Assembly: GCA_030704615.1 (NCBI GenBank)
Contig: CM060734.1
Span: 8,742,001-8,806,000 of the forward strand
From: Takakia lepidozioides
Taxonomy: Eukaryota > Plantae > Bryophyta
Direction of reading: 5' to 3'
Length of the DNA stretch: 64,000 nucleotides
Both the position numbers and the translations under genes were made by a program. This document shows positions 5,990 to 59,929 of the stretch, piece by piece. Within the stretch, counting starts at the first letter, position 1, and the number at the start of each line of letters is the position of its first letter. Under the pieces are notes generated by a model. That model made no database searches, had not been told where the DNA came from, and saw only the letters and a program-made list of their open reading frames with translations.

Positions 5990-8900
5990 GCCTCTCTGAC
6001 CAGGATGACATCCTCCCGGAGATCCCCAAACCCGGAGCATACAGGCTGGATTTGGTGGTCCTGGTGGGCTGCCGGAGAACCTCCCTGCAGCAGACGTCAT
6101 GTTGGAGGCCGATATGAAGTTGGCCACTGCCAAGATGTTGGAGGCAACCCATAGCAACATTGGCAGGGTCCTGGGAGGCATGGTCTACCCGGAAAAGCTT
6201 CGGATTCCTCTCTGCCGCTTGGTATCATTGTAGGTGGTCAGACCTGCCCTCCCAGGCGATATCGACAAGCTGAAATTCTCTTTCCGAGACGGATATCGAA
6301 TGGGGTCTGCCGCGTTTTATGTCTCGATTGAGAACGACCACGGAGCTTCTTGTGCCCACACTTCCGATGCAGTGGATAAATGGGGTCCCCATTGGCAAAG
6401 GCAAAATGAGGAGTTCAAGAGATTGATTGCTACTGATCCTCTTTTCCAGCACTTGTCCGGGAAGATGTTTTACGTGTGGGACGGCAACCATCGCCTCTTG
6501 GCATGGATGGAGCACATAGCCCAAGCCCACCCCAACAACCTAGATTGGCATTACGCCGTGGAGTGTGTTGTGCTGAAGGTTGCGGGGCCAAAGGATCGCA
6601 GTCTTCTCAAAGCTGCTATGGCAGACATCAACTCGTAAGTTACAATGTCTCTTGCACTGGAACTTTGAATCTGAAACACTCATTTCATTGCCAATCGTCA
6701 TATTTGTTGCAAATTCTCATTTCAGTATCGTTTAATGGAAATGTGACATTGCAGGGTGACTGAGAATGCCTTCATTGCCACCAACTTGTCCCACATGCTC
6801 TTCCGAGTGAAGGATGTCAGGAAGCAGGGGGTACAAGAGTTTGCCAATTCGCTCAGTGCCGACCTCCTTCGCAAGTCGGAGGCAAAGGCAAACAGACGCT
6901 GGTATAGGCTGAGCATGGATGCCATGGTGGACTACATATTTCGGGTACTGCGATGTGCTCTCTTCTTTTGTTGACATAATCAGTCTTTGCTCCCCCAATC
7001 GAAGAAAAAGTGTGGACCAGGATTTCTAATCTTATGTGCGCATTGTTGACAGATGAAAATTGAGCAGGATTTGGCACATGCGAGGAGGTTCTACATGGAG
7101 TCAGAGGAGAAGAATCTAACCCTCCCGGCACTGGAATCGTATCTCAAAGCTGCGGAGGCGAAGGCTCGCATCAAGTATAAGTCACAGATGGTGAAGTACG
7201 TGGCCATTGCTGATCCCGCCCTTGGTGCCGACTTTCTGGTGGAGGTGGGGAAGCACTACTCCCGCGCTCTTAAGCCCACGAAGACACTGGAGAAGTTGCA
7301 TCGTCTAGCCACAGCCTGTGTGGATGCAACAGAGAAGGTTATACATTCTTAACCAAATTCTCTTGTGGCAACAATCCGTTTTCATGGTGTCTTGCGCTTA
7401 CTAATATGCACGTTGATTGGACAGACCCGGTGGCTCCAAATCTGGAATGGGTCCCAGAGTACACAGGACATGCGGAGCTTCCCAAAACCCGACAAACTGT
7501 CCGACCCCACATTCGACATGTGGATGAACTGCATGACATGGTGGTTTCAGGTACTTTCCCACGCTTCATTTGGCGCTTCTACTCTTGTATCAGGTGGATT
7601 TCCTGTATTTCTTGAGGAATACTGTCTGATGGAGAATCTCCGCAGGTGACGACGAATGCGCAAGAGCAGCTTGACACCCAAGCACATCAGTTCAAGCTAG
7701 AGATTGTAGGAGAAGCAGAGAGCCTCCGCGACTATGTGACGAGATACTTTCTGCTGTACAAAACCGACCTGTTCTTTCGAATGATACCGCATGCCCGGAG
7801 GAGCCACGAGTTCACCGACCAGCCGAACGCAGACAAAGCGGCAATGCGCCTTCTGTACAGGTAAATATGCGGTGCTCCTCTTTGATCTGTGGCCATTGTA
7901 GTCCCTAGAGTTCCTGGATGTAAAACGCCTAATGTGGGGCAGACAATTCGTTGTGAAGAAATGGCTAAGTCCCTGGGGTGGCTGCCCCCGAGACTGGGAA
8001 AATGGCGCCAAATTTCTTGTCTCGGTGGAAGCCACCCCAGGGACTAGCATTTGGAAGCCTCGAATCTGGAAATTCGGCGCCATTTTCCCAGCTTGGGGCC
8101 CAAAATGGCTAAGTCCAATGAGGGGCTGGCCCCGATACAGGAAAAAGGCGCCGAATTTGCAGTTTCGGTGCCATCCACCCTGGGGACTTAGCCATTTTAT
8201 GGCCCCGGAACTGGAAATTCGGCGCCATTTTTCCAAGTTGGGCCCAAAAATGGCCAATACCAAAAGAAGATGGCCCCCAACCTGGAAAAATGGTGCCGAA
8301 TTTCCAGTATTGGTGCCAGCCACCCCAGGGACTTAGCCATTTCCGGGGCCCGGAACTGGAAGTTCGGCGCCATTTTTCCAGGTTGGATCCCAAAGTGGCT
8401 AAGACCCAGAAGGGGCTGGGGCCCAACTTGGAAAAATGACGCCGAATTTCCAGTTTCGGTGCCAGCCACCCCAGGGACTTAGCCATTTCTGGGGCCTGGA
8501 ACTGGAAAAAATTTCCAGGTTGGGCCCCAAAGTGGCCAAGTCCCAGAAGGGGCTGGGGCCCAACCTGGAAAAATGGCGCCGAATTTCCAGTTTTGGTGCC
8601 TGCCACCCCAGGGACTTAGCCATTTCTGGGGCCCGGAACTGGAAATTTGGCGCCATTTTTCCAGGTTGGGCCCCAAAGTGGCTAAGTCCCAGAAGGGGCT
8701 GCCTCGCCCACGGGAAAAATGGCGCCGAATTTCTAGTTTCGTTGCCCGGCACCCTGGGGAGCCGGGAGCAGCGCCCCCCCCCCCCCCCGCATGGAAATTC
8801 GGCGCCATTTTTACAGTTTCTTGCCGAAACATTAACCTCATTCCCGGGACCTGATTCTCTGTGGGTTTCTTGAATGCAGGTACTGCAAGTTCTCCCTATT

Positions 8901-11180
8901 GGAGAAAGGTCATCTGTCCTTCGAGCCTCCATTCTTCCTCGCATGGCGGAACCCTGGCGCTGACTCCATGTACACTGACGTTATGGTGAAGGAGTGGCAT
9001 CTGAAGCATTTGCGCGACTGCCCTTGGTATGTGGACCTTCCGCCCGGCTCACTCGACGCCTCGAAGTTTCAATTGAAGCTGGATGCTGAGGCCTGCCGAA
9101 ACTGGGCTACACTGCCTCCGCTAGGTCCAAAGGAGGCGAAAGCGCTTGCCAAGTCCAGGAAAGCGGCAAAGCTTGCTCAGGCAGGTATTTAGGAGAAGTT
9201 GAATGAGAAGAAAAAAGGGTTGAAGAAAAGGACACGGAAACAGGGGACTGCAGTAACCCCAAAAAAACAGAAAACCAGCGGGGCGCGAGAGGAGGCGTAG
9301 GAGGGGCCCGAAGGGAGTGACTCGGACGACGACTTTGTACAAGGTCCTGCCCTAGCTACTGCTACCAAGTCACCGGTAGTCCGGGTTCCCAAGTCAGTTC
9401 GGACTGGGACTGGCTCTGCCAAGCAGTTGGCGTTTGAGGGGGAGCCTACACGGCGGCATTCGGCGGTGACGTTTCCCGACGGGCCAAAGCTAGAACCCCC
9501 AACAATCATCCAATGCATCAATGAGAGCTTCCTTGACGCTCTGGCTGCCAGGGCGAAGAAGGTGGCACACAACAAGTCTCTGGAGGAGCTGAAGGGGAAA
9601 GCGAAGAAGAGGGCTGTTGCTGCAGAGCCTAAAGACACCCCTGGTTTGGAAGCCATGATGGAATTCTTCACGGCTGTGAGCACGGATTGTAAGAGCACTC
9701 GGGGGGGGGGGGGGGGGGGGGGGTGGGTTGAGGTGGAGAGAGCCTGTGATATGATTCTCCTCGATATTCCAGATGGGGAGCTGCTGGAGGGCCTGGATGG
9801 TGTGCCTACCTCGAACAAGTTTACTGAGGACTACTGGAGAGCCAGGTTTGGGCTGGCGGGGATGCTCCTGGATGACGGTGGATGTATGGTGGTCCTTGCC
9901 ACAAGAGGGAAGACGACAAAGATTGTTGTGGCAAGGTGGACACCAAAAAGTGCCACCCCGGTCCTCCTCAATAAATGGTTATGCATCAACAGGCAGGGGT
10001 TGCAAACAGAGGGCCAAAGTGTAAGTTATCAATCTATTGCTTTCACTTCATATCGTGGTGTATCTAAACTAGAGCTTGGAGTTGATCCCTCTTTTCTTGG
10101 ATGTGCTGACATTGATGTTTGAGGCATATTGTTTTGTGAAGAGAGGGTCTACGTTCAAATTCCGCAATGATGGTCGTCTTGTTGATGCTGTTGTGGACCC
10201 TCTTACCTACGATGTCTTCTACAACTATGTGCCCCACTCCAGTATGCCAAAGGACACAAAGACAGGCAAACCGTGGCGGTACAGCCGGACCCAGAGCCCT
10301 GCTTTCATCCAAACCCTCATGGAGACGTGCTCCGATGTCCAAAGGCGGATTCTTGACCTCACATGTGGCACGGGTAAGCCTTCACATGCACAGTATGTCC
10401 CGTGGCCCAATTACAATTGCATGCCGCATGCTACTAACCGCCTGCTTTGTCCCTCAGGTGCTTCAATGTGGGCTGGGACATTGTCTGACATGCATGTCTT
10501 TGCCTTCGAGCCAGATACTGCCCTCCACAACTCAGAACTAGCAGTGGCTGAACATTTGCCGAAAGAGGAAGAGGCATCCTCGGAGGATAAGGAAGAATCC
10601 GAGAAGGAGCAGGGGGAGGTACAAGTTGGGATCGAGGCCGAGGAGCCCCCAGTTTACGAGTGAGTGGTCGCATTGTAAGTTGCCTCCTGATTTTGTGAGG
10701 CACCTCCCTTTGCTCTCTTATTTCATTGGCCGACCTTTTCTGCTTCTGCTGGTATTGACATTCTTGAAGTGGATTTGTTCTTACTATAGGATGCCAAGTA
10801 CTGCAAGAGGGACGTCTACACCGCAGTTCATGGGTAGGAGGAACGTGCCTTTTTTTGCCAAGGGGGATTTCATGCCGAGTCCAAAAAGGGACTACCTCAG
10901 GAAAATAAAGATGAGGGAGGAGGCAACAGCTATTAGAGCTCGTCAGGCTCGTAGATTTGTCTTGGATTCTGCTGAGGAAAATGAGGAGAAGAGGCAGAAG
11001 ATTCCCAGGAGGTGAGGTGGACAGTCCCCCAAGGAGAGGACGGTATTTTTGAGAGGCATGGTGGAACTTATGCATCTCAGAGCTCAGAGGATGAGGGGGA
11101 TGAGAGGGATGAGGAGGAAGGTGGGGCAAGTTCCTCGGAGGGTGTAGGAGAGTAGTACCCATTCCGGCTATGACAGTTAG
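5990..11180 (+). pseudogene. ParB/Srx-like + DNA amino-methyltransferase-like fusion gene, copy 1 (~9 exons, several in-frame stops)
   Basis: Inferred exons ~5990-6634, 6755-6944, 7053-7337, 7425-7550, 7646-7860, 8880-10020, 10124-10373, 10458-~10659, 10790-11180 with GT-AG ends. Motifs: KLRIPLCRLVSL*VVRP, FYVWDGNHRL, ILLDIPDG (9763-9777), RTQSPAFIQTLMETCSDVQRRILDLTCGTG/ASMWAG..HVFAFEPD. Confidence 0.8.
7962..8815. repeat. Intronic array of ~11 alternately inverted GAAATTCGGCGCCATTTT motifs (~72-bp spacing, ~145-bp unit)
   Basis: GGCGCC-type cores at 8004, 8076, 8147, 8221, 8292, 8366, 8438, 8575, 8649, 8721, 8801, all inside intron 7861-8879. Confidence 0.9.
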
Positions 11181-14025
11181 GACACACTTGTATAGATGTG
11201 GCTTGCCACAAAATTTGCAATAAAATGTTGCATTTCATTGCTATGACGAGTCCAATGGTGCCACATTCCAACTTTAAATGACCCTATTACCGTGCCTCCT
11301 AACCCTATTTCCGTGGACACACAATTGTCCGCTCATGTTTTTTTTTTTTTCCGCTCATGCTCATGCCGCTCATGAAATAGCAGCCCCCCACCCACGCGTG
11401 CTGGACATTATGACAGATCTAGGATACCCCATTGATTCTATTCAACTTATTGGCAATATTTACACTAACAGTACCACCAAATACTCTAGCTCCTACTACG
11501 GCCCCACCCCCCCTATGCCCATATTGCGTGGTACCATTCAAGGTGACACACTGAGCCCATATCTATTTATTATTTTTCTTCAACCTCTGGTGCGATGGCT
11601 TGCTCGCGGCAACCTCGGATACCAGTACAAAACTTCTTCCAATGAAATCTCTGCAGCAGCCTATTCGGACGACCTAGCCATTCTTGCACACAAACCTCAA
11701 CACCTCAACTGACAGGTTGACAAACTATTCCGCTTCAACCAGTGGTCAGGGATGGAACTAAGCCTACACAAATGTGCGGTCACCGCTGCTACACACCAAA
11801 GCAAATTCTCAAAATCCACGATAGCCTCCCACTGCAAGCTATACATACACTATCAACAAAAACCATTCCCCTTCTTTAGCCCCAAGCGAACCCTATACTT
11901 ACTTAGGCATACAATTGGTTTCCTCGCTCACATGGCATATACAGAAGAGCACAACCCTATCCATATTAACCAACAAGAGCTTAGCCTTACTCAAATCTCC
12001 GATCTCCATCCGCCCTAAATTAGCTATCATCCAAAAAGTCCTCAATCCACAAGTCCAATACGCATTTCATGCGGCCCCCTTCTCTTTATCTGACATTAGA
12101 CTACTTGACAAAAACATTATTCAGCTCACCAAACGCATTTGTGGTCTACCTATTAGTACCCCAAATGCTCTCACTCAGCTCCCACAAGATAGTTATGGGA
12201 GAGGATCTAGCCCCCTGATTACATCATATGCCCGCACCCTTGGCTCATAACTCCTCGAGGCCCTCAACGACCCTAGGGCTATTTTTAGAGGACTCCTTAA
12301 ACACTTGGCCCATAAATATAATGGACTGTACTCCCTCCCCTCTCTCCACCCTCAATCCTGCCTTCACTCCCCTACCGCTCGCACATTGTTCATCTTACGC
12401 CAAATGAGAATCAGCATACAAACTGACCTCCCGGGCTACCCCAACTCCATATCACCACTTGAACGCGCGTGGCTCAACAGCCCATTCCTCACACAATTTG
12501 AAACTTTATACCCCCGTCAAAGAAAACTTATCCTTGCCTACTTCAAAGCACGCCATATTACTAATCTCACCCAGCTCACTACAGCCACTGGGAACCGACT
12601 GCTAACTCCATGCCAATTTACCTTGAAACATTCTCGTGCTACTATCAAAACACGCAGATATCTGCTTCACCTTTGTTCCCTATTCTGTCACCCAACTATC
12701 TCTTGTACCCTTGATTGTGACCTCCCCTACTCACTTTTTCCCCACAACCAACAAGATTTCATCCCAGAATTCCGTTCTGCCCCAACCGCCTCTATACTCC
12801 AACAGCTTAAAGCCTCCCAATATACTCCTGCTCGACCTTCCCAGGACTCCTCTCCCTTCTCCTCACCCACATCCCCTCCCCCAACGTCGCAACTAGTTGC
12901 CAATACAAATATTATCCTCTCGACTCCCCACTAGTAGCTACCCCTCCTCACCCAACCAGCCCTGACCATCCCGAGGCCTTCATCATTGAGGCCATCCTTG
13001 GCATCAAAACCCAAACCTCACTCGATGCATTTGGCGCTACTGGTGTTGATACATACTACCTTTGTAAATGGGCAGGCTTTTCTACAGAAGACAACACGTG
13101 GCAAATCGAAGAAGACCTCTTTGGGCCTACGAAGACTGCGATCCCGCCCATAACCGTGATCTTCTAATCAAATTCCACAAACAAACTAACACCAAATATC
13201 TAGCACACACCCACCAACACCACTCCTCCCAAACCCAATTGATAGACGCCCGCTACATCCACACCTCCCTAGCTGCCCAAAATCTGCATATACAAACCAC
13301 CGAATGTAACCCAGACAAAGACATTGCGCATGATTCCCCCATCATATGCCCTAGTCCTAGTATGTCCAATATATACACACTCAGCGGCAGTTTTGCCGGG
13401 TCAATTTCCAACATCAGTCTTGCCTGGCTCTGGTCTCAATATTCCACTTCCACCCCTCATACTACCCCATTACAACCGCCAAAGCAAGACTTTGCCACGG
13501 AGGTCTGCTAGCTTATATTAGGCCGGTACCTTCGCGACACCCCCCCCCCCCAAAAAAAACCCCGCACTCTCGATAAACTAGCACTTGCATATACTCATAG
13601 CACCATCCCACTAGACATCCTCAAACTTCTCATCACCACATTTCAGCTTACACACTCCTTCTATTCTAGCCCCTCACGTGCCCCCTTGAGCTTTCCTCCT
13701 ATGATAGCCCGCATCCCAGAGACTGTGTACTAGGAGCCCTTGGTTCCGCTATCCAACACACTTGGTCCGGAGGTGGCCTCGCGCACCCACCACCCGGGCT
13801 CCTCACCCATGAGGCTCTACAATGGGCGCGCCTCACCGCCCATTCATCCCCCTCCGCCATCACTATCCTTATTCTCACTCACAAAGCTTACCTAATCACC
13901 AACACCACCTTCTCCAACTCCCCCCTGAGGTGACGCCACTAGCCGCCATTGAATCCAACCATCTCCGCTACAGGCGCACCCTGCCCTTCCCCAAATATCT
14001 CCGCCACAAATAACCCATTCTAACC

Positions 14026-18587: not shown

Positions 18588-19270
18588 GGGGGGTGCTATT
18601 CCGTGAGCCTGGAGGCGTGAGCCTGTGAGCCCAGGAAACCGTGAGCCCAGCACAGGCTCACGCCACGTCAGCATACATACAGGGCCTATTTCCGCGGGTG
18701 TCACCTATTTCCGCGGGTTGATCAGCCATTTCCCGGGAATCCATAGTGGATACGTTACATCCATTGTATCCATTGCATCCATGCAGACGTTATCAACATA
18801 CCAAGCCCTCACAAGTTTATGTGGGTACGTCGTGAGGAGGTGCACACTGACATGATCTAAAGAGGAACCTTGCGAAATCTTTTCTTACTCACCACCCTTG
18901 CGAACATGCCAGGTATGTGCGGGACATCATGGATGCTCATTAGATTTGAGAATGCCTCATAGCTCTTTGATGAGGTGGACTTCACCGTGATGGATTCACC
19001 AACCATTCTTCTAGTAGGAATGGTTTGGAGACCAACGACCACGAACCAAAGTCGTTTGTTTGTTTTTGCAATGCACTCAAGTCTGTGAGGTCCAGAAAAC
19101 ACTAAATAGATTGAAGGAACAATCCGGGCAGTCCATGCAACCCCCATCTCCAACAATAGTTTGTTCCCATTAATGTGCATTCCACGCACACATTGCAAAC
19201 AGGACAACAAGGACACACAACCATCCCATTTCAAATTTGGCCCCGAATAAAACCAAAAGAAAACTTCATA

Positions 19271-22200
19271 TCAAGTGTCACAGTCATCAGAATCAGTCTC
19301 GACCTCCTGTGCTATGTCATCCACAAAGATTTTGGCCCCAACACCACGTCTTCTACCACGGCCGTCGATGGGTGGACTCCGAGTGCCATGAACGGTCATG
19401 CTTGTTGCGAGTGCCTCTGCATAGACAGGTAGCACGCAAGACCAAGGAGGACTGGAAAGAAGTCCAAATAGGTGTGATAGCCGTGGAGGGCAAGTGGAAG
19501 CACGCGGACTCCTGCACATGTCGACAAAAACCCATTCAGAACACAATATGCAATACACAAGTCCAACGAAGAGGATGTCTGCCATGTGAACTTTGCCTCA
19601 AGAAGAGTGATTCTCGATATTGAAACAACAATGCAAGCATCCACAGGTTGAACTTACTCACAGGCAAAGTCGGAGTCCAGCTCCTTGTCGGAAGTCTCCT
19701 CTGTATCAATATCAGCGGGACGGGGCTTCGGAAGGACTTGAGAAGTGTGTCCACCCAAACCCATCAGGAGGTTCTTGTAAATCTCAGCATCCCCTTCAAT
19801 CCCAAAGAGATGTCGGGCACTGGCCTTGCAAGCGTGGTACGAAGCACCTGCAGTGGAATAGAATGAAGGAAGCAGACATTGAAGACACATATGGAACGGT
19901 GGGAAGTACTGAAAGTGCAAGCTCAATCAAACCAAGAGACAAACCTGTGCCCATTGACAAATCCAGAACTCTGGCGTCTGTGTAGGTGCAGCACTCCACA
20001 ATCGTTTGAATGAAAGTCGGGCTCCTCTCCCTCGCCCCTCTCCAAGGAACCTCATTCCCCCTTCGCAAGCAGACGTTGTTGTCGACGTAGTTGTGGTGCA
20101 TGTCATCCATGGGAGGATCTGTCCTGTCGTCTATGAACTTGCCCCCATGAGTGATGGCGAACTCCGAAATGTCGGCCGGAGTCGTTGGTGGATGCACTCG
20201 GACGAGACAAAACAGCTTCAAACAAACGAGTCTGCGAACAACACATCCAGAAGGAACTAAGAAGCTTCAAAAATCAGGACCCTACATATGAGTTCGAGCG
20301 ACCTACACAACTCCATCCGAGAACCACCAAGAAGAGGAAGAAGAAGGCAAATTTACCATCTCTCCCGGACGATCCCCCTTCGTAAGGTACATGCTGTTCA
20401 CACAATTCCATGTCTTCAGGACTCTCATGCCCGAGGCTTTCAAATAGCTGGCAAGTGCACGGCGACAGCGAATGTCGGCGGACTGTATGAGCACCAAAAC
20501 ACCTGCATCGGACAGGAAAAAATTGCAAAAGGAGAAAACCCACCGCCAGTAGCGCTCATCAAAAGCATTCCAACCCGGACAAGCACCCGATGGAGGGACA
20601 TCCGGGACTGCCAACCCATCAGGGATGTCCAAGATTATGAATTCGGCTGCATATTGCTTCTCCTTCCCGTTCACCCAGGATTTGGTCATTTTAGCCTGCA
20701 AACAAAATTACAATGGAATACTCAAGAGGATTGAAACGATCCATGCCCACTGCAGAGAAGAAGCAAAAGAGAACACGCACCGTGCCGAGGAACTCTACAA
20801 TCCTCTCCCACACTGGTGATGGCTCGCCCTTGTAATCAGATTTCTTGGACTCCATCATGGCAAGGAATCCGACGTTGGCCATCTCCAACCTGGTAGGGCG
20901 AATGATCCTCGTCGGATGTTCCACTGCATGGTACGGGTCCTTGGGATCAACCACCCCCTTGTTCTTTCTCACGGATCCCCTACCATGCGGTGGAGTCTGC
21001 TGGACATGCACCACTGGGCCAATATCTGCAACACTTCCCTGCCCTTGTGCCACCTTCCCTCTACCCCTTCCTTTCCCTACAACACCAGCAACATCTTTTC
21101 CCTTTGCCTTTCTACCTCTACCCGGGGTATCCTGAGCGGGAGGCTCCTTCTCTGCAAGAGTCCTCCAATTTCATTCATGAATGTTGAGGTCGGCTGCTGC
21201 GGCAGTGGCTGCAATTCGCTCATTCTCTCTCCTCAAAGACACCTCCGGAGCTGGGGTCTCAGAAGGAGGGCAATCCAAATACCAACCACAAGAAGAAAGA
21301 TGGTCTGGGCCCCAGTCATGCAAGATCCCAGTAGTAAACATGGTCTGATTGCCAGCAGGTCCACGAAATCTGGATGTTTGTCCAAGCAATTCTCTTCCAT
21401 GAGAACAAACTTTATGTACCTGCAGGAATAGAGACAGCCTCATTATGCAATGCAATTATTGTCTCTCAGCTTTTCCATCACACCAGGAAGACCCCCTTAA
21501 ACTGTATGCGTCACAGTACATTGCAACCACAGCACACTAAGTAGCCTGAACGGCCCAGGGTGTGCACCTGTAAAGGCATCGTTTCCAGGCTTCCTCTCCT
21601 TTTTCTTGCTGGTCAAGGTCATGTGTTCGACTGATGTCACCCTCCTTGCTGAACTCTCTAAAGAAACAAGAGTGCCACACTGTGGCTCTCCATTTCCTCA
21701 TGTATGCTTCGAAGGAGACCTTCGGTGCTGTCATAGTGATGCCATAGTCAGCCAGCTGAGTATGCAGAACCGACCGTGCCCTTTCTTCCAACTGCAAAAC
21801 AATTCAAATGCAAGAATGAACCAAAAAAAATCATAGCGAATGTGAGAGGCAATGGAAAGAGAAGGACAGGAAAAGAGAAAAGAAAGTGACACAGGAAAGG
21901 ACATCACACCTGGCTCCAGTAAGTGGCCTTGTGAAGCCATGTGTCCAGCACATTGTCACTGACAGGAATGACACGCTGGGTCTTCTTCTCTTTCTCCGGC
22001 CTGGGGAACATGTGGGTATCCCTAACTGTGGGATCGGAGTTCCATATCTGTAGCCACTTCACCTTCTGTTCTGAAGACACAACGGCGTCAGACAACCTGT
22101 GTAACTTCTCCTGGGCCATCTCTAGCTTGCCTGGCTTGTTATAATGGTTTTTTTTATCTCCAGGAGAAACTGCGATCCGAATGATGGGTCGGCAATTCTC

Positions 22201-25200
22201 AACCGCTTCACAAAAGCACTCATTATAGTCCTTCTTGTAGCGGTCATCTCTTTTTGGATGTGACTCTCAACCCCCTTTGCTGTCCTTCTCTCCTCAGGGG
22301 TTGACCTGTAGTATTCCAGTTTGCCACGCTCCCCTGCATCTGCAATGTCTTGCTGCAAGGGAATGCACGAGAGTTGCATCAACCCAAGGGCAAGGGAAAC
22401 AAACAGAAACAAACATGTGGAAGCAGGAATATGGAAAGGGCAGATGAAGGAAGATGTATCTCACCGTGTACATGTACTCCATGAAAGCCTCACGTGTCAA
22501 CGAGTACCACGTTTCCGATGTCTTGGAGCTTTCGCACTTCTTGTACGTCTCTGCTGAAAGGATGGTCTTGAAGTTGGTCAAGGGCATCTGCCCAATCCTT
22601 TGTATCCTATACAGTGTGTGAACCAGACTCGTTTTGACATGCGATGTCTCCGTTCCTCTGCAGAATGATTTCTGAAAGTCAGAATGAAATTCAAGGACTT
22701 TAATCAAAGAACCACGGAACTACAAGTGGAACATGTAGAATGAGAAACCAACCTGTTCACATCATTCATTGCCATCAGAAGACCCATCATGTTCCCCTCA
22801 CAATCCAGCACCATCGATCGAACAGAGTAATGCCACTCTTCCTCCCGTGAGTGCAGCCTCCCAATAACAGCCATCCATGCAAGCAACCGGTGGTTCCCAT
22901 CCCAAACGTGAAACATCTTCCCCGAGAATGCCTGGGTGGAAGGTTTCCTGGAGAGAAGAAGTTCGAAGGATTCGTTCACCTGTCTCCAAATAGGATCCCA
23001 GGAGTCCACGATTGACTCATCCACAAGGAGCTCATTGCCTGTGGAATCCTTTGTACAAACGTAATCTATCCAAATACCCATGAACAAAGCCTCTAGCTTG
23101 AGAATGTCCTTGATGAGGGGTGGTCGAACAACGGGCATGGAAACCATCCTACACAGGGGAATCTTACTTTGCACCACAAGCTGAGAGTTTACCTTCTGAC
23201 CCCCCAGCATCTCAGCGGCTTTGCTTTCATAGAACTCATCGTCAACATCAACAATGATCTCCTTCCCCAGCCCCGAAGGGATCTCCTCCGCCACACTTTG
23301 CATCTTCTCCTGCAGGGTTGTCCATTCAAATTGATATAAGAGTGAGGCATGAGACGATGGTGTTTGAGCATGGGAGACAGGCCATGTGTGGAAGAAAAGG
23401 TGAGCTCAAACAGTGTGCGTTGACGCACACTGTTTGAGCTGCAAGGTAAGTGTTCATTGAACCTCAAAGACATGCCACGTAAGTGTTCATTGAACCTCAA
23501 TGAGAAGCCCTTAGTGGCCGATTTTCAGATGAAAAAAAAAGAAAAAGTGAGCTCAAACAGTGTGCGTTGACGCACACTATTTGGGCTGCAAGGTAAGTGT
23601 TCAGTGAACCTCAGAGACATGCCATGTAAGTGTTCATTGAACCTCAGAGACATGTCAGGTAAGTGTTCATTGAACCTCAAAGAGAAGCCCTTAGTGGCCG
23701 ATTTTCAGATGACAAAGGCAATGACAAGGTGAGCTCAAACAGTGTGCGTTGACGCACACTGTTTGAGCTGCCAGGTAAGTGTTCATTGAACCTCCGAGAC
23801 ATGCCCAATATTGCCGAATTTCATAGGGGAAAAATAGTGACAAGGTGTGCTCAAACAGTGTGCGGCAACGCACACTGTTTGAGCTGCCAGGTAAGTGATG
23901 ATTGATCCTCAAATACAAACCCTATGTGGCCGATTTTTAGATGACAAAGGCAATGACATGGTGAGCTCAAATAGTGTGCGTTGACGCACACTGTTTGAGC
24001 TCACCAGGTAAGTGTTCATTGAACCTCCGAGACATGCCCTGTATTGCCGAATTTCACAGGGGAAAAATAGTGACAAGGTGTGCTCAAACAGTGTGCGGCA
24101 ACGCACACTGTTTGAGCTGCCAGGTAAGTCATGATTGATCCTCAAATACAAACCCTATGTGGCCGATTTTCAGATGACAAAGGCAATGACAAGGTGAGCT
24201 CAAACAGTGTGCGTTGACGCACACTGTTTGAGCTGCCAGGTAAGTGTTCATTGAACCTCAGAGACATGCCATGTATTGCCGAATTTCACAGGGAAAAAAC
24301 AGTGACAAGGTGTGCTCAAACAGTGTGCGGCAACTCACACTGTTTGAGCTCCCAAATAAGTGTTCATCGATCCTCAGAGACATGCCCTATGTGGCCGATT
24401 TTCAAATGAAAAAGGCAATGATAAGGGTAGCTCAAACAGTGTGCGCCAACGCACACTGTTTGAGCTGCCAGGTAAGTGATGATTGATCCTCAAATTCATA
24501 CCCTATGTGGCCGATTTTCAGATGACAAAGGCAATGACAATGTGAGCTCAAACAGTTTGCATTGACGCACACTGTTTGAGCTGCCATGTAAGTGATGATT
24601 GATCCTCAAATACATGCCGTTTGTGGCCGTTTTTCAAATGAAAAAACAATGACAAGGTGGGCTCAAACAGTGGAGAATTGAACTGGGCATAGTGGCCCTA
24701 TCTGGCCGTTTTTCACACTATCAACCAAGTAAAATGCGGGGCTCAAACAGTGTGCGTCAACGCACACTGTTTCAGCATCCAATTCGTGGTGGATTTAACC
24801 TGCCGTAGTTCCCCAATTTGGCCGTTTCGCACATCAACAAGCCAGCAAAATGGAAGGCTCAAACAGTGTGCGTCAACGCACACTGTTTGAGCTTCTTGTT
24901 TGCGGTTGATGCAACTTGGCAGAGATGTCGTGTGTAGACTATGTTCATATCGAAATAGAATCTCAACTTGGGTTCACATCAGCAATGAAGCACAAAGGTG
25001 GGTTTCAAAGATTGAACCTTTTTTTTGGCTGCTCCAGAAGACTCCCCAATCGCCGGGGACCCTTTGCGCTTCGGACTGCTCTCCACGCCTCGCATGTTCT
25101 GGAGCATCTCCCCCATCCTCTCTTCCACTATTAGGTTCTTTGTGAGGCCAGCGTCAACATCATCTTCGGCGTCTGCCTCTCCCTCGGATGCAGTGTCCTC

Positions 25201-25480
25201 CTCATTTGTTCTTGGAACTATGGCAGGCTGCTGTTCTTCTCCGGATTCCTGCTCTTCCATCGCCGAACTTTGCTCTTTGCCCTCTTCTTCCGCCTTTTCC
25301 TCTTCGGCCACTCTTTCCATCCTCATTCTATATCTGGCTCTATTCCTGTTTCTAGAGCTCGTGAAGTATAATGACTTCCTTCTCTTCCTCCTCCGCTGGA
25401 AACAAGGGCTCCCCACGATGCCTCTAGAGCTCTCCAGTTTGACGTTTGCAACAAGGGTTGCTATTGCATGTAACCAAAAT
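19271..25480 (-). pseudogene. ParB/Srx-like + DNA amino-methyltransferase-like fusion gene, copy 2 (multi-exon; 5' acidic exon tentative)
   Basis: KIPLCRMVSMPVVRP and FHVWDGNHRL (22704-23303); HTLYRI; IADPSFGSQFL; KWLQIWN; IILDIPDG (~20615-20629); RERSPTFIQTIVECCTYTDARVLDLSMGTG/ASYHACKASARHLFGIEGD. Several intron positions match copy 1. Exon ~25020-25480 could splice in phase 0 to 23309. Confidence 0.78.
23402..24893. repeat. Array of ~13 copies of a 38-bp palindrome AGCTCAAACAGTGTGCGT-TG-ACGCACACTGTTTGAGCT, ~116-bp period (232-bp higher order)
   Basis: Copies start at 23403, 23550, 23732, 23848, 23964, 24081, 24197, 24313, 24429, 24545, 24660 (half), 24740, 24857. Confidence 0.95.
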
Positions 25481-26285
25481 CAAAATTGGACATTGTCAAC
25501 CGTATTTGGATGCGGGTGTTGTTATTGTGTGTGAACGGAATTCATCCATTTTGGCGTCTTGTAATTAAGAAATAAAGTGCTAGAAAATATGTACATCCGT
25601 TGCATGTACTTGTGATATATGTCAGATGTACTTCGTCGCCTGCCAATATATGGCGGCCTTCTTGCATGGTTTCAAATTCGGAAGTGCCGTAGAAATCTAA
25701 TGCTAGTTCAATTTGGAGCAGTTCTTGCAGATTCGCCATAAATGTTGTGCTTCACATATGCATCCACGTGTGTCGTACTGCCTGCCCTGTGCTTTACATT
25801 TTGCCGTCATCGTCGCCATGGGGTCATTCGGTATAAAGGGTTGTGTCGGAAATGATCTTGTGTTGCACACATCCGTGCGAGGTGACTCTTGGAGTGTCAG
25901 TGTTTGTGCTGTGCTCTTCTGGCACGACACAACCTCATTACATTCGGGGTCTTCCTGTTTACTGCTCTCCAGGGTTGTTGCCGTCTTTCCATAAAGGATG
26001 GTTTCATGTCATGTTCAGGGTTTGTTTTTCATCCAAAAACAGCACGGCTTCTTGTGGCTTCCTGTATTTGAAAACAGTTTTTCTAGTTGGTGTCTCTCAG
26101 CGTGGTTGTCTGCGAAGTTCTGTGCATGTCATTCCTGCATCCTTTTGATGCATCGCCCGCAGCCTTTGGGTTAGTGCTACCCTTGTTGACCTCAATTTTT
26201 TGTGGTGGATCCCCTTTCGAGAATTGCGGGCTATCAGTTCGGGGATTCCGTTGTGAAACGAAAGTTTCGATCAGCGTAGGAAAAC

Positions 26286-28833
26286 ATGTCCAGGGAGAGA
26301 GATAGACTAGCCCGATTTCATTCCAATGCAGATAGTCTTCCACTGACTGCCACTGCAGACGACGATAGGTTTGCAGTTGTTCATGAGGATGAGCTGGTTA
26401 CAGTGTTCCCACTGGAATTGGGTTCTCTGCTTGTTCAAAAAGAGGTGTATGACGAGGATGGGAATTTGGATTCTGGACATTTGGAGAAACATTGGTTGGC
26501 GAGTGTGGAAGGAAGTGGAGAGTCATTCCAGGCACATACCGTGTCCTTGGAAAAGAGAGAAGACAATCAGCAAGATCAGTCATTACCCCTGGAACTGCAG
26601 CATCGGTCGTGCAACAAAAGGGCACAGTTCATGTGAAACAAGAGGTGAGCACATCCACTACATTCGTGACTCTTTCAGACTCGTCCTCGGAGGATGTTTC
26701 TGAGATTCCTCCGCCAGTGCAGACTCCATTCTTGGATGAATCCGAATTGCAAGAGATAACGAGTGTCATTCCAAAATTGAAAGCCCTCGCAGGGGTGCCT
26801 GGGTGCAAGAGCGAGATGCGTTTTGTTGATTGGGAGTCCCTTCGTGTGCAGCGGGTTCAATACGTGCCAGCAGAGTTTGATGGGGACATCTTGTTTGAGC
26901 TCAACCCTCCCACGTCTTCCAATGGACTGGCTGGGCTTCTGCAGGGCATGGACAAGAAACATGACGTTGGTGCAGGACAAAAACGTCAAACATCCACAAC
27001 GACATTGGATTGAAATTTCGAAGGTCGGTTTGCGTTGGGCATTGCAAGTGCCTGAATATATCTTGCCCTCGCTTGAGAAACAGCGCTCAACCAAACGAAA
27101 GTGAGTGGGAAGGTGTGCCCTTGAATCCTTTCACCCCAGGACTTGCCCCTCCCAAGACCAATACTTTTGTTTGCAGGTTCTGCAAACTTTCCCGTCCTGT
27201 GTTTCTGTGTGCCACGCTCGTATGTACCAGGTGGCACACCGATGCAAGACAATGACTCGTGCCTGCATTCATATGGGTGCACACGAGCATCCTGTGTCCA
27301 AAGGAAGTTGCAGGGATAGCGTGGACATCGCTAGAAATCTGCTGAAGCAGGAGTTCCACAATGCCCTTTGTGCAACATCTTCCGCTATAGCGCTTGCAGT
27401 TAGCAAGGCTTTCCTGGAAAAACACATATTGGGTGAAGGGGATTCGACACAACCAATGCTGGATGCAGATTCGCTTGATACAGTGATGAACCATTTCTCC
27501 GTGTTGAGCTCTCCCAATATTCGAAACCAGGTGAATGCACTCAGAGTCGGCACAGGCACTGCTGGATTCATGGACAACATTATGGACCTCAAACGGAGAA
27601 GTCGCTATGAATTCATTCAAAACAATATCTTCCCTGGCCAAGGCTCATCCAAGGTGTATTTGTTCAAGATGTCCGCAGTGGGCGAAGGCAGTGGTGTGAG
27701 CATTGTCCGCCGAATGCAACCTGGAGGAGATTTGGCTAAATGTTGGTTGATGTTTGATCACTGCAAACGGGTGAAGGGTTGGACAACCATGGCATGCCAT
27801 GTGTATGATCCAGCGTACCAGCGTGTGCTCTCAATAGCAATTTGTGATACGCAGTCGGAGGACACTGAATCCCAGATGCTCATGTGGAATTCGTTCCTGG
27901 CCGTCATGCAGCGCAATGGAATACAGAACACAAATTTTGCGGGCTTCATGGCTGATAGTGCACAGGCAAATTTCAATGCAGTGTGGTGCGTGTTTGGTTC
28001 GGGGGATCCTAAGGTCCCAATGGAAAATAGGGAGCGCACATGCCTCTTCCATTGGAGTCAATCTCTGGCACGTCATACAAAGCGGTGCATTCGCCCTGAC
28101 CTTCAGTTGGAGCACATAAGGCTCTGTCTCAAGTACAAAAATGCCAACTCAATGGGAGAAGCTGAGAGCACTTACCAAGCAATCCGGGCTTGGTGGTTCT
28201 CCTCTGGTGCTGCTACTGGTATCTACCTGAAGGAGTTGGAGGACTGGTTGGTTTTCTGGCACTTTAGATATAGACAGTGGGGAGCTTTCATGACGACGGT
28301 AAGCCTCTTGAATCCCAAAATCAGAAATTTTGCATCGTGCCTTTTCATTTGGGGTTCTTGGATTGTCGCTTGCAGAACCTCTTCCATTTCCTTTCCTTCC
28401 TCACATTTCCATGCAATGCCTCATGCAGGACATGTCCTTGGAGGACTTGGCCGACATGCCATCCTGTAATTTGGCGGAGACTGTTCATAACGCTTGGATG
28501 CAGCAATCTACCAAAGCAGGTCGTGACTTGTATGTGGCCACTGCTGATGACATGGTGCGGGCACTTACACAACAAACCAGGTACCGCAATTTTATGATGG
28601 GACGGGGTGGAGGCAAGGGCCCCGGTACGACTTTGTTGATGCTAAGGGCTGCGAGTAGGTCCGGAGACCCATCCAAGATGGCCAGAGCTCTGAACAGGTG
28701 CACTGAAGGCTCCCCTTTGCAATCCAGGCTCCCTCATTTGGAAGGCAAGGAAAGATTTGGATCATGCAAAAGGAAATTGAACACTCTTCCAGGGTCAGAT
28801 GGAGATTCCCATCGCCCAGACAGGGTAGCGTGA
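26286..28833 (+). pseudogene. MULE-like DDE transposase, N-terminal and catalytic part (frameshifted; intron 28299-28428)
   Basis: WLMFDHCKRV (D), GFMADSAQAN (D), RTCLFHW (CxxH), SCNLAETVH (E); upstream CIHMGAHEH Zn-like motif. Confidence 0.75.
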
Positions 28834-29151
28834 GCGGCACAAATCTGCTGGAGAAGCAGGTCCTATAGGCGAGGATTGCAAGAAGAGGGCCTATTACCGT
28901 GGACAAAACAAAGGGGGCCACCATGCACCATGTCTGCAATGCCTGCACAAAAAGAGGAATATGAAAATATGGCAGAATTGAGCTCAGAATGATTGACACA
29001 CTTTATTTCAATTCACAGATAGACGCTTACAATGAATGGCATGTACATTTGCCCTGGTTCCGTGAACGAAATGTATGTGTTGTCCTAAATGCAAAGTCTT
29101 CACACGGTAACCTAGAAACCAGCATGGAAAGCGGGCATGGCTCGTATGTGT

Positions 29152-30160
29152 TCAAAGAGAATTTGGCGGAGCCCTACGTGAGGTGTCCCGCTGCAGAAGG
29201 GTGATGACTTCTCTGTAGCCTAGTGTGGCTTGGTGAATGAATTGGTCTCTCTTACCGTCGCAACACATAATTACAAGGTATATGTAATATTGATGCTTGC
29301 AGGGGACCCACTTCCCTCTCATGCCGAGAGCGCCCTCACGCATCGTTACAAAATCCGGACAAGTGCAAGTAGGGAAATTCCCCACGGTAACCTGATATTC
29401 TTTGTCATGAAGAACTGAGCCAATAGACAGCACTGTGTAAATCCGTCCATACCCCGGGGCAGGGACTTCAGTGATACGAGCCACCCGAGCCTGCAAAATT
29501 CTAGCCGATTCCATCTTGCATTCGTGATCTGCACCCGAAGCGACACGGCGCACTGTTTTTCCATCTCTTTTTGTTGGGTGGGAGTCGGCACTGGGTGGAG
29601 GCATTGCCAGAGCTTGTGGCACATCTGTGCCGACAGTGCACAAGGGCACCACTCGGGATCATGCAAGACAAAACCCTCCCTCCTCCAGCATGCTTATCTC
29701 AGTTGTTGACAGCGACGTTCCAAGTTTCACAGGCCAAATTGCGGGGGAAGGGGGTTTCATTATCACCGAAGGATGAACTGTTCCCTTGACGCATCGTGCC
29801 ATATCGTCTGGGTAGAACCAGAACTTGTGGTCCTTTGACTCCCCACTATGATAAGGTCGGAACAACCCTGTGAATGTTGGAGCTGGAGTCCCCCTGGAGC
29901 CTTTGCATATTTTTGATTTGCATTTCTTGAAAGAGGGGGTCCGAATTGCAATGCAAGCAACTCTAGATCCTGGTGGGGTGCGTTCTATATGCCACTCACT
30001 ATCAATGCAATCAGATTCCTGCACCATGGCCACCACCTCCTCCAATGGGATTCCTGCTGCTGTGCTTGCATGTTCTGCACCTGCTCCACAGGAGGAGGAC
30101 CCACCTAGGAAGGGGCCGGCACACGACTTAGTCTGCACTGGAGACACCTTTGAGCTCAGC
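29152..30160 (-). pseudogene. SWIM Zn-finger-containing region, probably the inverted C-terminal third of the transposase
   Basis: YQVTVGNFPTCTCPDF..WVPCKHQYY (CxC..CxH). No room for a promoter or start: coding sequence begins ~40 bp from the element end. Confidence 0.7.
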
Positions 30161-30201
30161 TCCCAGGCTCACGGGGCTGGGCTCACGCCGTAGCTACGCT
30201 G

Positions 30202-48245: not shown

Positions 48246-49827
48246 GGGGGTAGTTTTTCTATGAGCAGTGAGCACCCAAAAACATGAGCAGAGGCTGGAA
48301 AATGGGCGAAAAGTGGATTTTTGGGGGAATATTCCTTCAAAAACACTCAATTTCGGGGGTGTTTATGGGCCCAGAACGCCCTAAGAATAAAGCACAAACT
48401 GTAGGTTCGGCATGCAAGACAGGTTCGGCGTCGTTGGCAGTTCCAGAAGTCGGCAACGATTTGCAGGTAGGAAATAGTAGTTGCAGCCAAGTAAACCTAC
48501 CCACGGTGATAGGTGGGGTTTCTATAACCGTGGAAAATTACATGGCTTAACATGGGAAGTCGGCACAGAATTGGACGTGTGTGCTGGACAAGTCACTCAG
48601 AAATGACAAGTCCGCACAGACTTCGCGATGGCCCGTACAGTTGTTGCGGGTTTGGAAGTCGGCATAGACTTCTGCAATGAGTGGCAAATAATATTTCGAA
48701 TGGTAAGTTGGCACCGAATTCGAGATGGCTTTTAGGCGTGATTTTGAGAGGGGAAGTCGGCACAGACTTCTCCATATCCTTCAAAAGTTTCTTGCGAAAG
48801 GTAAGTGGGCACCGAATGGAAGATGGTCTCGAGGCGTTAGACAGAATTGGAAGTTGGCACAGAGTTCTCCATATCCTTTGCATGTTTACGTGGGATCTGA
48901 AGTCGGTGCAGAATTGTGGGGTGTGCGAGAAAATCAGCAGCTTGCGGCATTTCACTGAGTTCGTTCCGGACTTAGTACAAGATTCAGTACTGGACCCTCC
49001 GAGGCAAAAAGTGAACATGCAACAAAACTCAACATTACACAAAAACTGGATCTTTTCTTCAGAGAAATCATTTATTCATATAATGAACTTTGACAAGTAT
49101 GCATGCCCTCACAAGCCGAGGTAAGCTTGAGGTATGCATGCATTCCATGGATGCTTGGGGCCCAAAACGGCTAAGTCCCATGACATCGGAAGGTACTCGG
49201 GGACTTAGCCATTTTGGCCCCCCAGACTGGAAATTCGGCGCCATATATCCAGGGTGGGGCCCAAAACGGCTGTCCCATGAGTGCCTGTATCCGACTCTGG
49301 AAAAATGGCGCCGCATTTCCAGATTCGGGCAAGGCCACCCCTGGGACTTAGCCATTTCCGAGGCAGCAGCTATTAGAGCTCGTCAGGCTCGTAGATTTGT
49401 CTTGGATTTTGCTGAGGAAAGTGGGGGAGAAGAGGCAGAAGATTCCCAGGAGGTGAGGTGGACGGTTCCCCAAGGAGAGGACGGTATTTTTGAGAGGCAT
49501 AGTAGAAGTGATGCATCTCAGATGTCAGGGGATGAGGGGGATGAGGAGGCAGGTGGGGCAAGTTCCTCGGAGGGTGTAGGAGAGGAGGATAGTAGTTCCC
49601 ATTCCGGCTATGACAGTTAGGACAGTTGTATAGATATGGCTCGCCACAAAATTTGCAATAAAATGTTGCATTTCATTGCTATGACGAGTCCAGTGGTGCC
49701 ACATTCCAACTTCACATGACCTTATTTTTGTGCCTCTTATCCCTATTTCTGTGGACACACAATGGTCCGCTCATGTTTTTTTTTTTTTTTCGCTCATGCT
49801 CATGCCGCTCATGAAATAGCAGCCCCC
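48246..49827 (+). mobile_element. Element E4: non-autonomous deletion derivative of the E1 family (1.58 kb)
   Basis: Left end GGGGGTAGTTTTTCTATGAGC; right end (rc) GGGGGCTGCTATTTCATGAGC; ~49155-49360 matches the E1 intron array and 49360-49827 matches 10920-11388. No TSD seen. Confidence 0.8.
48556..48912 (+). repeat. Array of 8 AAGTYGGCACMGA motifs at 48-51-bp period with divergent ~35-bp spacers
   Basis: Motif starts at 48557, 48608, 48656, 48705, 48754, 48803, 48851, 48900. Confidence 0.85.
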
Positions 49828-57519: not shown

Positions 57520-57959
57520 GAGGTTTACTATTTCATGAGCCCATGAGCCCATGAGCCTATGAGCTCATAAGCTCATGAGCGGGCATCCGCGGAATTGGAA
57601 TTTTTGTGCCTTTATTGATGGTATTAGGTCCTCATACCTCGATAATATGGTCTGTTTCTCCTGGTCCATGATGCGGAATGAGGTATTTCGGCGTCGTTAT
57701 TCCACGTCACGACTGTAAAACATTGTGCAGGACAGGAAAGAGACACAAACTTGTAGCCCTCACAAGCCATTGTGCTGACAGGGTAATATATTTAGGGTCA
57801 GACGACAGTTGAATTTGCAAACCCCATTCAACACAACATCACCCCACATTGACATGACAGAAAATTGCCATACACGCTCGAAATACAAACATCGGGAAAC
57901 TAGAAGTTTTTATTTTGTACATCGACAACTCCGAGCTTCCATCATCAGAAATGAACCAC

Positions 57960-59016
57960 TGCAGCATAAGAAACCTGTGGAACTACCATAACCCGGAGCC
58001 TGTGCCCTCCAATCACCCTCCACAATGATCCTTAACGCTCTATACTGCTGCGTTGACATCCACAACACGAACCACCGAGTCGTCGAACCACAGGTCCAGA
58101 ATTAGGAGTGGCGCGGTAGTCGTCCACTACGCATTGCCGTTTTCTGGATTAAGATGACGGATAAAGATACAAGATATCTATAGAGGTCACGTTTGTGGAA
58201 ACATGCAAATATTGGAGGCCAGGTGGGACCTCCTCCACAGCATCGTGAAATGCGCAAACATCCGGGACAAACCTGTTCCGATTCTCCCTTAGTGTCAACA
58301 ATATATTCCCTGGCCCAGAAGAGTGACTGAGCAACTCAAGAGCCCTATCCGGGAGCAAATACTGTGGAGGTGCAGTATAGTTATGGTAGCAAGACCTCCA
58401 GAACTCGCCGCAGCAACATCTCATGATGAAGAGACGAACACTCCGTCTTCTAGGTCTATCTCGCACAACAAGTATCCATGTTGTCCACTGGCAGGCCTCA
58501 CCCAAACAGAATCCCACAGAAGTGCTCGGAAACTCGTCACCCTGCGTGTACCTTCACTGAAGTCCAACTCCACCATAATGTCTCCCATCTCCGGCTCACG
58601 CAATTGCGAACCTGGAATCCCGCTTCGTCAAATGCAGGTGGCATTTTCACAGGGCGGCATTGAGGAAGTGTGCGCCCACCGGGAATGGAGAGGGACAAGT
58701 AATCACTGTAGTGTTTCAACACGGAGATGCAAACATTGAAAACCCATTGCGGAACACCCTCTGACGTGATCCTCTCTGGGGCAATGGCAATACGTGCCCC
58801 CATTGGCCGGCAACGGCTATCCACACAGCCGATCGAAAATGACTGTCTGGACCATACGTCCACGAAGGGGCTAGACAGAGAAGGTGCCACGACATTACGG
58901 GAAGAAATTGTGCTAAAACTACCGGCGTCCCGGCTTGGACCTCCGCATTGCGGCGCCAAAATAGCACGTCGGCATGAAAACTGCATGATGCCAGCGGAGT
59001 CGGGCACGATTTGCAT
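57960..59016 (-). pseudogene. Possible additional cargo gene of E3, unknown function
   Basis: Chain of overlapping minus-strand ORFs (58537-59016, 58421-58603, 58149-58517) with protein-like composition; no family recognised. Confidence 0.3.
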
Positions 59017-59377
59017 ACTCGGACTTCGCGATTTCTGTGACGAAATAGCAAAAATACACTGTCCTATTTTGGGGCCAAAATAGGCAAACTAATGGGAGTA
59101 AAGTTGGAACGTATGTTGTGCAGTTCTTGAGCAGGAAAACAATGAAAATTGATTATTCACCTTGGCACGCGGATGACATTGAGGCGTGGTTTTTTCATCC
59201 TGGCGGAACGCGATATAGATGTTGCGGGATGTCAGGCGGCCAGGTGACACCCTGGTTGCAGGCGCCAGTGCTCATACGCCATGAGGGGGAGGTTCAAATA
59301 TCTTGGGTGGAGTGTGCGACGTCATTGTCGTACACAATACAGACGTTCCTAGCTAATACAGCTAACTTCGACCGTGC

Positions 59378-59680
59378 TATTTCGGCGCCGAAATTCCCAA
59401 GAGCAGTGTGCTAAAGTGTAGTATTTTCAAGACTTCCACCGGGGTATTTCGGCGCCAAAATTCCCTTTTGAAATGTGATATACTGGCGTATTTTATGGCG
59501 CAGAGCGGGCTATTTCGGCGCCGAAATACCCAAGTGTAATGTGCTGAAGTGCCTTGTGCTAAAGTGCCTTGTGCTGAAGGCTTCCACCATGCTATTTCGG
59601 TGCCGTAATTCCTACGTGGAATTTTATAAGGCCCATATTATGAAGGTGCACACTGGGCTATTTCGGCGCCGAAATTCCCA
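59378..59680. repeat. Five copies of palindrome TATTTCGGCGCCGAAAT(T/A) at ~66-bp period; two more at 62362 and 62429
   Basis: Starts at 59378, 59445, 59511, 59593, 59659. Confidence 0.9.
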
Positions 59681-59929
59681 GTAGGAATGTGAGAAAGGGC
59701 CGTGTTTTGATGGCTTCTAGTTCACGCTTTGCTGGTGTGCATAAATTACTTGTAGGGTTCTTTACTTTACTTTGCGTCTCTTCTGCTTTTATTATTACAT
59801 TGTGGTTTGCGGAAGATATGTTGGGAATCGGACATGCACAGTCTGAACACAATGATTTCAAAAATCATCAATTTTTTCATTAAGTGATTAAGAACTGTAC
59901 AACAGAAGGATCGAAATGAGACTTTGTTA

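Follow-up and report, generated by a model that had tools for sequence, protein, structure and literature searches.

The window analysed here, a 64,000-nt stretch of the genome of Takakia lepidozioides (assembly GCA_030704615.1, contig CM060734.1, positions 8,742,001 to 8,806,000), contains three broken, paralogous, intron-rich copies of one accessory gene of Mutator-like elements, denoted E1, E2 and E3. The E1 accessory gene (5995..11150, plus strand) is broken by stops and frameshifts and lacks its 5' part and the transposase; its ParB-like exon (~6200-6635, encoding WDGNHRLLAW) is followed by helical exons, a linker and methyltransferase-like exons (9730-10380), all on the plus strand, and the end of the element (11290..11388, plus strand) carries GCTCATG subterminal repeats and the minus-strand terminus GGGGGCTGCTATTTCATGAG. 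E3 is located on the minus strand and extends from its end (GGAGGTTTACTATTTCATGAG) to the window edge (57520..64000), with a likewise broken accessory gene at ~64000-60000. The parts of E1 and E3 within the window contain no transposase. E4 (49150..49827, plus strand) is a deletion derivative of the E1 family in which two E1-type sites are joined to the E1 3' end.

E2 (18589..30201) is present with both ends and is inserted in an LTR element. It is flanked by a 9-bp target-site duplication, GCTTTTTAG, at 18580-18588 and 30202-30210, and the empty site near 43240 carries GCTTTTTAG once; a duplication within the 9-11 bp typical of Mutator-like elements was thus found for this one element. Long terminal inverted repeats are absent, the E2 ends having only short subterminal GGCTCACG repeats, and these termini fit the non-TIR type of Mutator-like element. 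The E2 accessory gene (19400..25500, minus strand, outer limits approximate) includes a ParB-like exon (~23170-22752) and methyltransferase-like exons (20695-19940), and is divergent from a Mutator-like transposase gene (26400..28900, plus strand), of which the segment 27699-28301 matches PF00872 weakly, below the curated cut-off (E=0.0028). The SWIM-like part of E2 (29155-30168, minus strand) is inverted relative to the transposase, whereas in the related locus L030 both are on one strand, so that E2 contains an internal inversion. Transposase homologues divergent from the ParB gene were linked to it in three of the eight non-redundant loci with more than 4.5 kb upstream, and such linkage of transposase and accessory gene is seen in E2, L003, L030 and L076. 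The terminus shared by E1, E3 and E4 is similar to that of E2, and the repeat at the element ends, GCTCAYG, differs from the internal dyad described below and is the likelier transposase site.

Contig depth, which is a rough guide only, is far above that of neighbouring unique DNA over E1 and E3, and fits repeated families. A transposase-like gene at 718-4463 was considered as the missing transposase of E1 and rejected: it is unlike that of E2, and contig depth over it is ~200-650 compared to 10^4-10^5 over E1, again as a rough guide. This low-depth gene, on the minus strand, encodes a transposase-like protein (SDGCSSKF...GHGKGPHDGAG) with no significant Pfam match, carries an inserted high-copy fragment at ~2157-2843, and is possibly domesticated. 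At the truncated 5' side of E1, a 90-bp piece of a high-copy retroelement region (5878-5967) recurs with 99% identity at 51775-51864.

The E1 intron at 7861-8879 (plus strand, boundaries GT..AG) interrupts the Arg codon after 'LYR/LFR' that is also interrupted in E3 (62509-62287) and E2 (21567-21420), both on the minus strand, and the three introns are therefore orthologous. The original prediction, that this intron carries a common motif in E1 and E3, is borne out by 11 matches to TTCGGCGCCATTTT (two or fewer mismatches) in E1 and two symmetric sites in E3 (62363 and 62430); both palindromes quoted for E3 are present, 67 bp apart as described. The E1 array (7962..8815) comprises 5.5 copies of a 146-bp unit with two inverted sites per unit. 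As had been noticed, its lopsided TGGAAATTCGG-CG-CCATTTTTCCA sites (TCGG-CG-CCAT) alternate in orientation (7999-, 8073+, 8142-, 8218+, 8287-, 8363+, 8433-, 8570-, 8646+, 8716-, 8798+), apart from a deletion that removed the plus-strand site expected near 8505; no exact TCGG-NN-CCGA is present in E1. The E1 and E3 introns share nothing beyond the sites, as claimed, because their best local alignment is no better than shuffles (score 20 against a shuffle mean of 20.2, p=0.58).

The orthologous intron is only one of the places where these sites occur. The majority of E3 sites (at least eight) lie outside it, in a second array 3' of the gene (59379..59680) with five TATTTCGG-CG-CCGAAAT-type sites (59379-59660) spaced 66-82 bp apart, and as single sites at 57685, 58947 and 63695, the last in another intron. 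The E2 array (23392..24960) is located further upstream than the E1/E3 intron, upstream of the ParB exon, and consists of 116-bp units with 12 palindromes of a different type, CAGTGTGCG-NNNN-CGCACACTG (type B), spanning 23411-24864. The E2 units also hold GAAATTCGGC or GAAAATCGGC, which resemble the good half-site of E1, so the E2 array may be not wholly unrelated. An array of ~9 AAGTCGG-CA-CMGA-type sites, ~49 bp apart (48447..48915, plus strand), adjoins E4; this low-depth array represents a further site variant, and no protein gene was found beside it.

GGCGCC, proposed as the core of the motif, occurs 20 times in the window, with 19 copies in E1 (9), E4 (2) and E3 (8), and one in the other 38,969 bp. 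Comparison of related loci retained this association but not GGCGCC as the invariant. A metagenome scan confirmed 351 relatives, of which the best 80 were kept and reduced to 59 non-redundant loci at 95% identity. In an unbiased screen of 3,328 dyads in these 59 loci, TCGG-N2-CCGA ranked first, with 52 sites against 0.9 expected, in 19 of the 59 loci, and the same dyad at any spacer other than 2 gave 0-2 sites. The consensus is GTCTCGG-NN-CCGAGAC, with seven centre classes. Unit lengths differ among loci (e.g., 67, 75, 117, 127, 146, 158 and 244 bp), and because these lengths and the two centre bases vary, GGCGCC is merely the NN=CG case of TCGG-NN-CCGA. None of the 56 tabulated exact sites falls within the three mapped exons, and none was found in 51,356 bp of outer flanks or in the 38,969-bp rest of the window; by this measure the motif is absent from unrelated DNA. 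Dense motif arrays, as known for VANC targets, are thus found in the non-coding parts of the elements themselves.

Among 166 distant pairs, sequence identity was 0.40-0.63 at positions -3 to -1, which are not fixed by the search, compared to 0.24 for the centre base and mostly 0.2-0.35 at distances of more than 3 bp from the core; the sites of distant proteins thus agree in nothing but the core and the three bases next to it. The flanks differ between clades but are symmetric (0.63-0.85 at -1 to -6). By the rules used and counting cluster members, 21 of the 59 loci carry exact sites, five have at least three decayed sites, four have lopsided arrays, three are of type B, one is of type C, and 25 have none. 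Of these siteless loci, 19 have less than 650 bp upstream, and the six longer ones (L003, L063, L064, L053, L070 and L076) stay below threshold. Old copies contain sites decayed by C>T/G>A changes (13 in L058 against 0.35 by chance, and 10 in L056 against 0.5). The centre in the decayed clades reads CG, CA or TG, so that GGCGCC may be the ancestral centre, although free to change. Long A/T-rich minisatellites of 15-25 bp were also seen in or near the gene in decayed copies (L033:4600-6600, L003:12280-13070, L059:12216-12690).

Arrays occupy at least four positions. They were seen 5' of the ParB exon, following exon 2/3, within the E1/E3 intron (L046, L048), ahead of the methyltransferase exons and on the 3' side of the gene. 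The proposed location in the E1/E3 intron is therefore genuine but is not the only one. In L035 and L046, lopsided sites are amplified in direct orientation. The E2-type palindrome recurs in L030, L072, L075 and L078, all without an exact type-A (TCGG-NN-CCGA) site; in L078 it was a second palindrome of the unit that satisfied the relaxed type-A rule, and this locus was classed as type B. A second palindrome (GGTTTT...AAAACC) is carried by type-B units at L072:860-1300 and L078:1300-1660. The type-C site, TTTGGGTCG-NN-CGACCCAAA (GGGTCG-NN-CGACCC), occurs in L006:1-200 with a spacing of ~32-34 bp and might be a spacer-expanded type-A site.

The ParB exons of E1 and E3 are 56% identical, against 47% otherwise, and the two are sisters (support 98/91). 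The more distant E2 protein does go with a different palindrome, as predicted, and this site type is common to one clade of three loci. The further proposal, that motif similarity tracks protein similarity, holds coarsely and not at fine scale. In a three-exon tree of 47 loci and two outgroups (33 loci motif-typed, 14 untyped), the site types require three changes against a shuffled mean of 4.8, and only 2 of 200 shuffles were as low, but kinship alone gives such clustering. Mantel tests of protein distance against flank similarity (r=0.16, p=0.12) and against the centre (r=0.07, p=0.17) were not significant. On the best tree, two changes are required for type B. The three-exon tree did not unite E2 and the remaining type-B loci in a single clade, whereas the first tree had joined E2 to the type-B clade at support 47, and type-B monophyly is not rejected (p-AU 0.22). 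By eye, no clear residue pattern in the exon 2-3 alignment separates the motif types. Because type A is spread over most clades, and the distant locus L029 also has TTCGG-CG-CCGAA, the E1/E3 match mainly reflects inheritance of a retained ancestral state. Judging from this distribution, the TCGG-NN-CCGA site looks ancestral and widespread rather than specific to E1 and E3.

The accessory protein belongs to a large family. A profile of the first conserved exon matched 755 protein clusters (50% identity) at E<=0.001; the ten long family matches that were looked up are annotated hypothetical proteins of the liverwort Riccia sorocarpa and of two Adiantum species (ferns), and a full-length form from a cluster member has 1207 amino acids. 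The ParB-like part was not recognised in Pfam, PHROGs or PDB sequence searches, relatives of the ParB exon were not found in viral contigs and prokaryotic genomes, and a homologue search with the E3 linker exon gave no matches. Single-sequence fold prediction reached a pLDDT of 34. An AlphaFold model of a distant liverwort homologue, P0098, rather than of E1 itself, was built from a 111-row alignment and has a pLDDT of 82-98 in most 10-residue blocks of 151-510. When 48,161 chains were compared to this model, the four best, KorB, PadC, an archaeal ParB-N and sulfiredoxin (Z 8.0-6.0), all had ParB/Srx folds, and the modelled N-terminal domain displays the ParB/Srx N-terminal fold (rmsd 2.4 over 96 residues, Z 8.9). 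The model overlays nearly whole two-domain ParB and Noc structures (Z 7.9-9.1, where 8-9 is near the caution level of the comparison tool; rmsd 7.6-13.7), including Caulobacter ParB (178 of 180 residues aligned, Z 9.1, rmsd 8.4), and these alignments run on through the second domain of ParB, which is its HTH DNA-binding domain, but at an rmsd of 7.6-9.6. In a Foldseek search with the same model, ParB also ranked first, with E 0.35, and nothing was retrieved at E<=0.001. The GxxR motif (G-N-H-R) is conserved, with G in 128 of 143 and R in 114 of 142 sequences. The accessory protein is accordingly predicted, from the model, to combine a ParB N-terminal domain with a helical domain that overlays the ParB DNA-binding domain.

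The C-terminal domain has a beta-class N6/N4 methyltransferase fold (PDB 5hek, E 2.6e-9; PF01555), with PF01555 matches above the curated cut-off in P0159 and P0165 and with motif IV preceding motif I, as in the beta class. The beta-class catalytic motif (D/N/S)PP(Y/F/W) is replaced by DIPD (E1, E2), DIPE, DYPE, DLPT, DMPT or DVPF: neither DPPY nor SPPY was present in any row examined, most rows have D-x-P-(T/S/D/E), and the fourth residue is aromatic in one fern protein only (DVPF). From liverwort to moss-like loci, motif IV retains its D and P, and a motif-I-like D-x-x-x-G-x-G is likewise conserved. Searches of phage records yielded methyltransferase matches, all of them weak. Judging from these motifs, the domain is probably inactive, and the accessory protein, lacking DPPY and TSPPY, is not a canonical methyltransferase or a DN4MT1. 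The 3' end of the gene repeatedly encodes a short acidic tail, RR.F(V/L)DD.A.E (10960-11060, 60044-60103, 19330-19300; P0162, P0165), which may resemble the short motifs by which chromatin factors are docked.

Among the transposons of flowering plants, VANDAL and Spm elements are established cases of sequence-specific self-protection. In Arabidopsis, VANC binds dense motif arrays in VANDAL introns, which results in hypomethylation (PMC5735166). The elements described here resemble VANDALs in being Mutator-like elements with an accessory gene and in having short motifs, which differ by family, in rapidly changing tandem repeats located in introns and other non-coding parts (PMC5735166, PMC10398659). 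However, VANC contains DUF1985/DUF287 and its target is a non-palindromic 9-mer arrayed in one orientation (PMC5735166, PMC10398659), whereas the protein in question here is ParB-like and methyltransferase-like, its dyad has a deeply conserved core, and its function is predicted. No Pfam matches to DUF1985/DUF287 were detected in the window exons or in full-length homologues; by its domain content, the accessory protein is not a VANC. The likeness to ParB/parS, Noc and RK2 KorB/OB consists in the ParB N-terminal fold predicted for the GxxR-containing part, in the helical domain that comes next and overlays the DNA-binding domain, and in palindromes of comparable size carried by the same mobile element as the gene (PMC11790492, PMC12704722). 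In contrast to these systems, the genes here are eukaryotic and intron-rich, encode large helical insertions and a C-terminal methyltransferase-like domain, are accompanied by tandem arrays, and no ParA-like gene was noticed.

The same two domain types occur in one chain in phage fusions of ParB with N6/N4 methyltransferases (PMC12704722, PMC4738411), and the C-terminal domain here matches PF01555 and phage methyltransferase families, but its catalytic motif is degenerate, and for the ParB part the viral contigs and prokaryotic genomes searched gave no relative. In PMC4738411, the eukaryotic ParB-HTH fusion is a 'chlorophyte-type Dam' (group 2) that occurs in chlorophytes and chytrids. MpDN4MT1 of Marchantia is likewise a prokaryotic-type beta-class amino-methyltransferase in a non-seed plant, but it is an active host enzyme with TSPPY, whereas the domain analysed here lacks TSPPY, shares its chain with a ParB-like part and is carried in multiple copies by a transposon (10.1101/2021.02.12.428880). 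By language-model features, the nearest named clusters are fungal DUF3723 (similarity 0.95-0.96), and an hmmscan of the accessory protein gave no match to DUF3723 (PF12520). Like the gene analysed here, DUF3723 is a conserved accessory of mobile elements in eukaryotes, being a cargo of fungal Starships, but the element class differs, and the available text of the source describes no cognate site for it (10.1101/2021.12.13.472469).

Across relatives, one short palindrome is preserved within repeats that have nothing else in common, which makes it likely that the protein binds these sites. A dyad with a free centre has been selectively retained and amplified repeatedly in different places, and the host gene has a ParB-like fold; on these grounds, the two would form a protein-site pair. 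By analogy with the known systems, this is most likely a VANC-like self-recognition system built from a ParB/parS-like pair. The short, CG-rich dyads arrayed in non-coding DNA, TCGG-NN-CCGA or derivatives of it, would be the binding sites of the element's own accessory protein, a dimer of which may recognise the dyad as ParB recognises parS, and tandem amplification would raise site density such that binding is confined to the element's own copies. Binding, perhaps followed by nucleotide-dependent sliding, could then maintain expression of the element in the face of CG/CHG methylation, which is the part played by VANC in VANDAL. Under this scheme, E1 and E3 would have inherited their site, and the E2 lineage would have switched to another dyad. 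By a narrow balance, we favor the view that the dyad is bound by a dimer of the accessory protein, which would thereby mark the element that encodes it, much as VANC does; such marking would possibly serve against host silencing. Against this count the lack of a significant fine-scale motif-protein correlation, the 25 of 59 siteless loci, the lack of an exact dyad in E1, the two changes needed for type B, the high rmsd and borderline Z of the two-domain overlays, the Foldseek result, the use of a distant homologue for the model, and the linkage of a transposase in only three of eight loci. CpG observed/expected ratios are 0.52-0.67 in E1 and E2, against 0.42-0.80 in neighbouring retroelements, and because these match, there is no sign of long-term methylation protection of E1 and E2; the 3' part of E3 alone is higher (0.85).

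The strongest rival reading, though it appears unlikely, is that the internal dyads are instead bound by the Mutator transposase, as enhancer or self-activation sites, the ParB-like gene being no more than a place that tolerates arrays. Such a transposase, inherited with the element, would be expected to produce the same tree pattern, its gene is linked in the four elements named above, and sequence-specific activation by the AtMu1 transposase is reported in a 2026 preprint, which places hypomethylation at the termini (10.64898/2026.08.24.746577). The termini of the present elements, however, carry their own, different repeats, L003 and L076 have a transposase but few or no dyads, and the ParB-like fold is that of a protein type known to bind such palindromes. 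That the accessory protein is an active 4mC/6mA methyltransferase using the dyads as landing or target sites, and thus chemically marking its own element, is quite improbable: the beta-class motif order, the PF01555 and PDB matches and the conservation of motif IV D and P and of the motif-I-like sequence would agree with it, but the catalytic motif is consistently degenerate, with the fourth residue mostly T, S, D or E.

We consider it very unlikely that the arrays are neutral or structural minisatellites, the palindromes promoting slippage or RNA hairpins and the similarity reflecting plain descent. The predicted RNA folding of the E1 array is very strong (-540 kcal/mol, z=-24), symmetric flank changes are also compatible with base pairing, and array length varies among family copies; yet the enrichment is for one specific sequence and spacer rather than for palindromes generally, the dyad survives while units turn over, and poorly pairing lopsided sites have been amplified in direct orientation (L035, L046). 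There is scarcely more than a slim chance that the dyad is an enhancer amplified by the elements and recognised by a transcription factor or chromatin protein of the host. The core does persist across very large protein distances, and the TGTCTC..GAGACA of one clade's site resembles an auxin-response inverted repeat; however, three variants and the type-B site coexist in one window, the flanks differ by element clade, and exact sites are absent from both the outer flanks and the rest of the window.

The arrays are a genuine feature, and on the preferred reading they would belong to a further variant of the systems by which transposons recognise themselves, one that would be categorically new if clamp behaviour were shown. 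No description of such an element was found in the literature that was covered, most subscription papers and repeat databases being outside the search. The family would be an independent solution to self-protection derived from a bacterial ParB-like module. With a candidate site already defined for several subfamilies, binding and specificity swaps are directly testable. The nucleotide specificity of ParB-type proteins is reported not to be predictable from sequence (PMC12704722). A sliding clamp like that of KorB (PMC11790492) could account for action over kilobases, offering a concrete mechanism by which a short motif marks a whole multi-kilobase element. A far bolder proposal, which we put forward as tentative and rather doubtful, is that a ParB/parS system is carried by transposons of mosses, liverworts and ferns: a sliding clamp, gated by nucleotide and derived from bacteria or phages, would load at palindrome arrays in its own introns and spread along the element, and the methyltransferase-like module would shield or re-mark the DNA against host silencing, with DUF3723 of Starships as a conceivable counterpart. 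If true, a clamp of the ParB type would be at work on the chromatin of eukaryotes, and this might point to a function for the Starship cargo DUF3723.

Several minor features were also observed. Parts of relatives are covered by contigs of two presumed RNA runs, on which no conclusion here is based. Degenerate ~106-bp repeats at 33600-36000, judged by eye, probably represent a PPR-like host gene. An inverted repeat of ~100 bp (84%), with copies 11 kb apart at 39783-39881 and 50810-50909, contains the sole GGCGCC of the window outside E1, E3 and E4.
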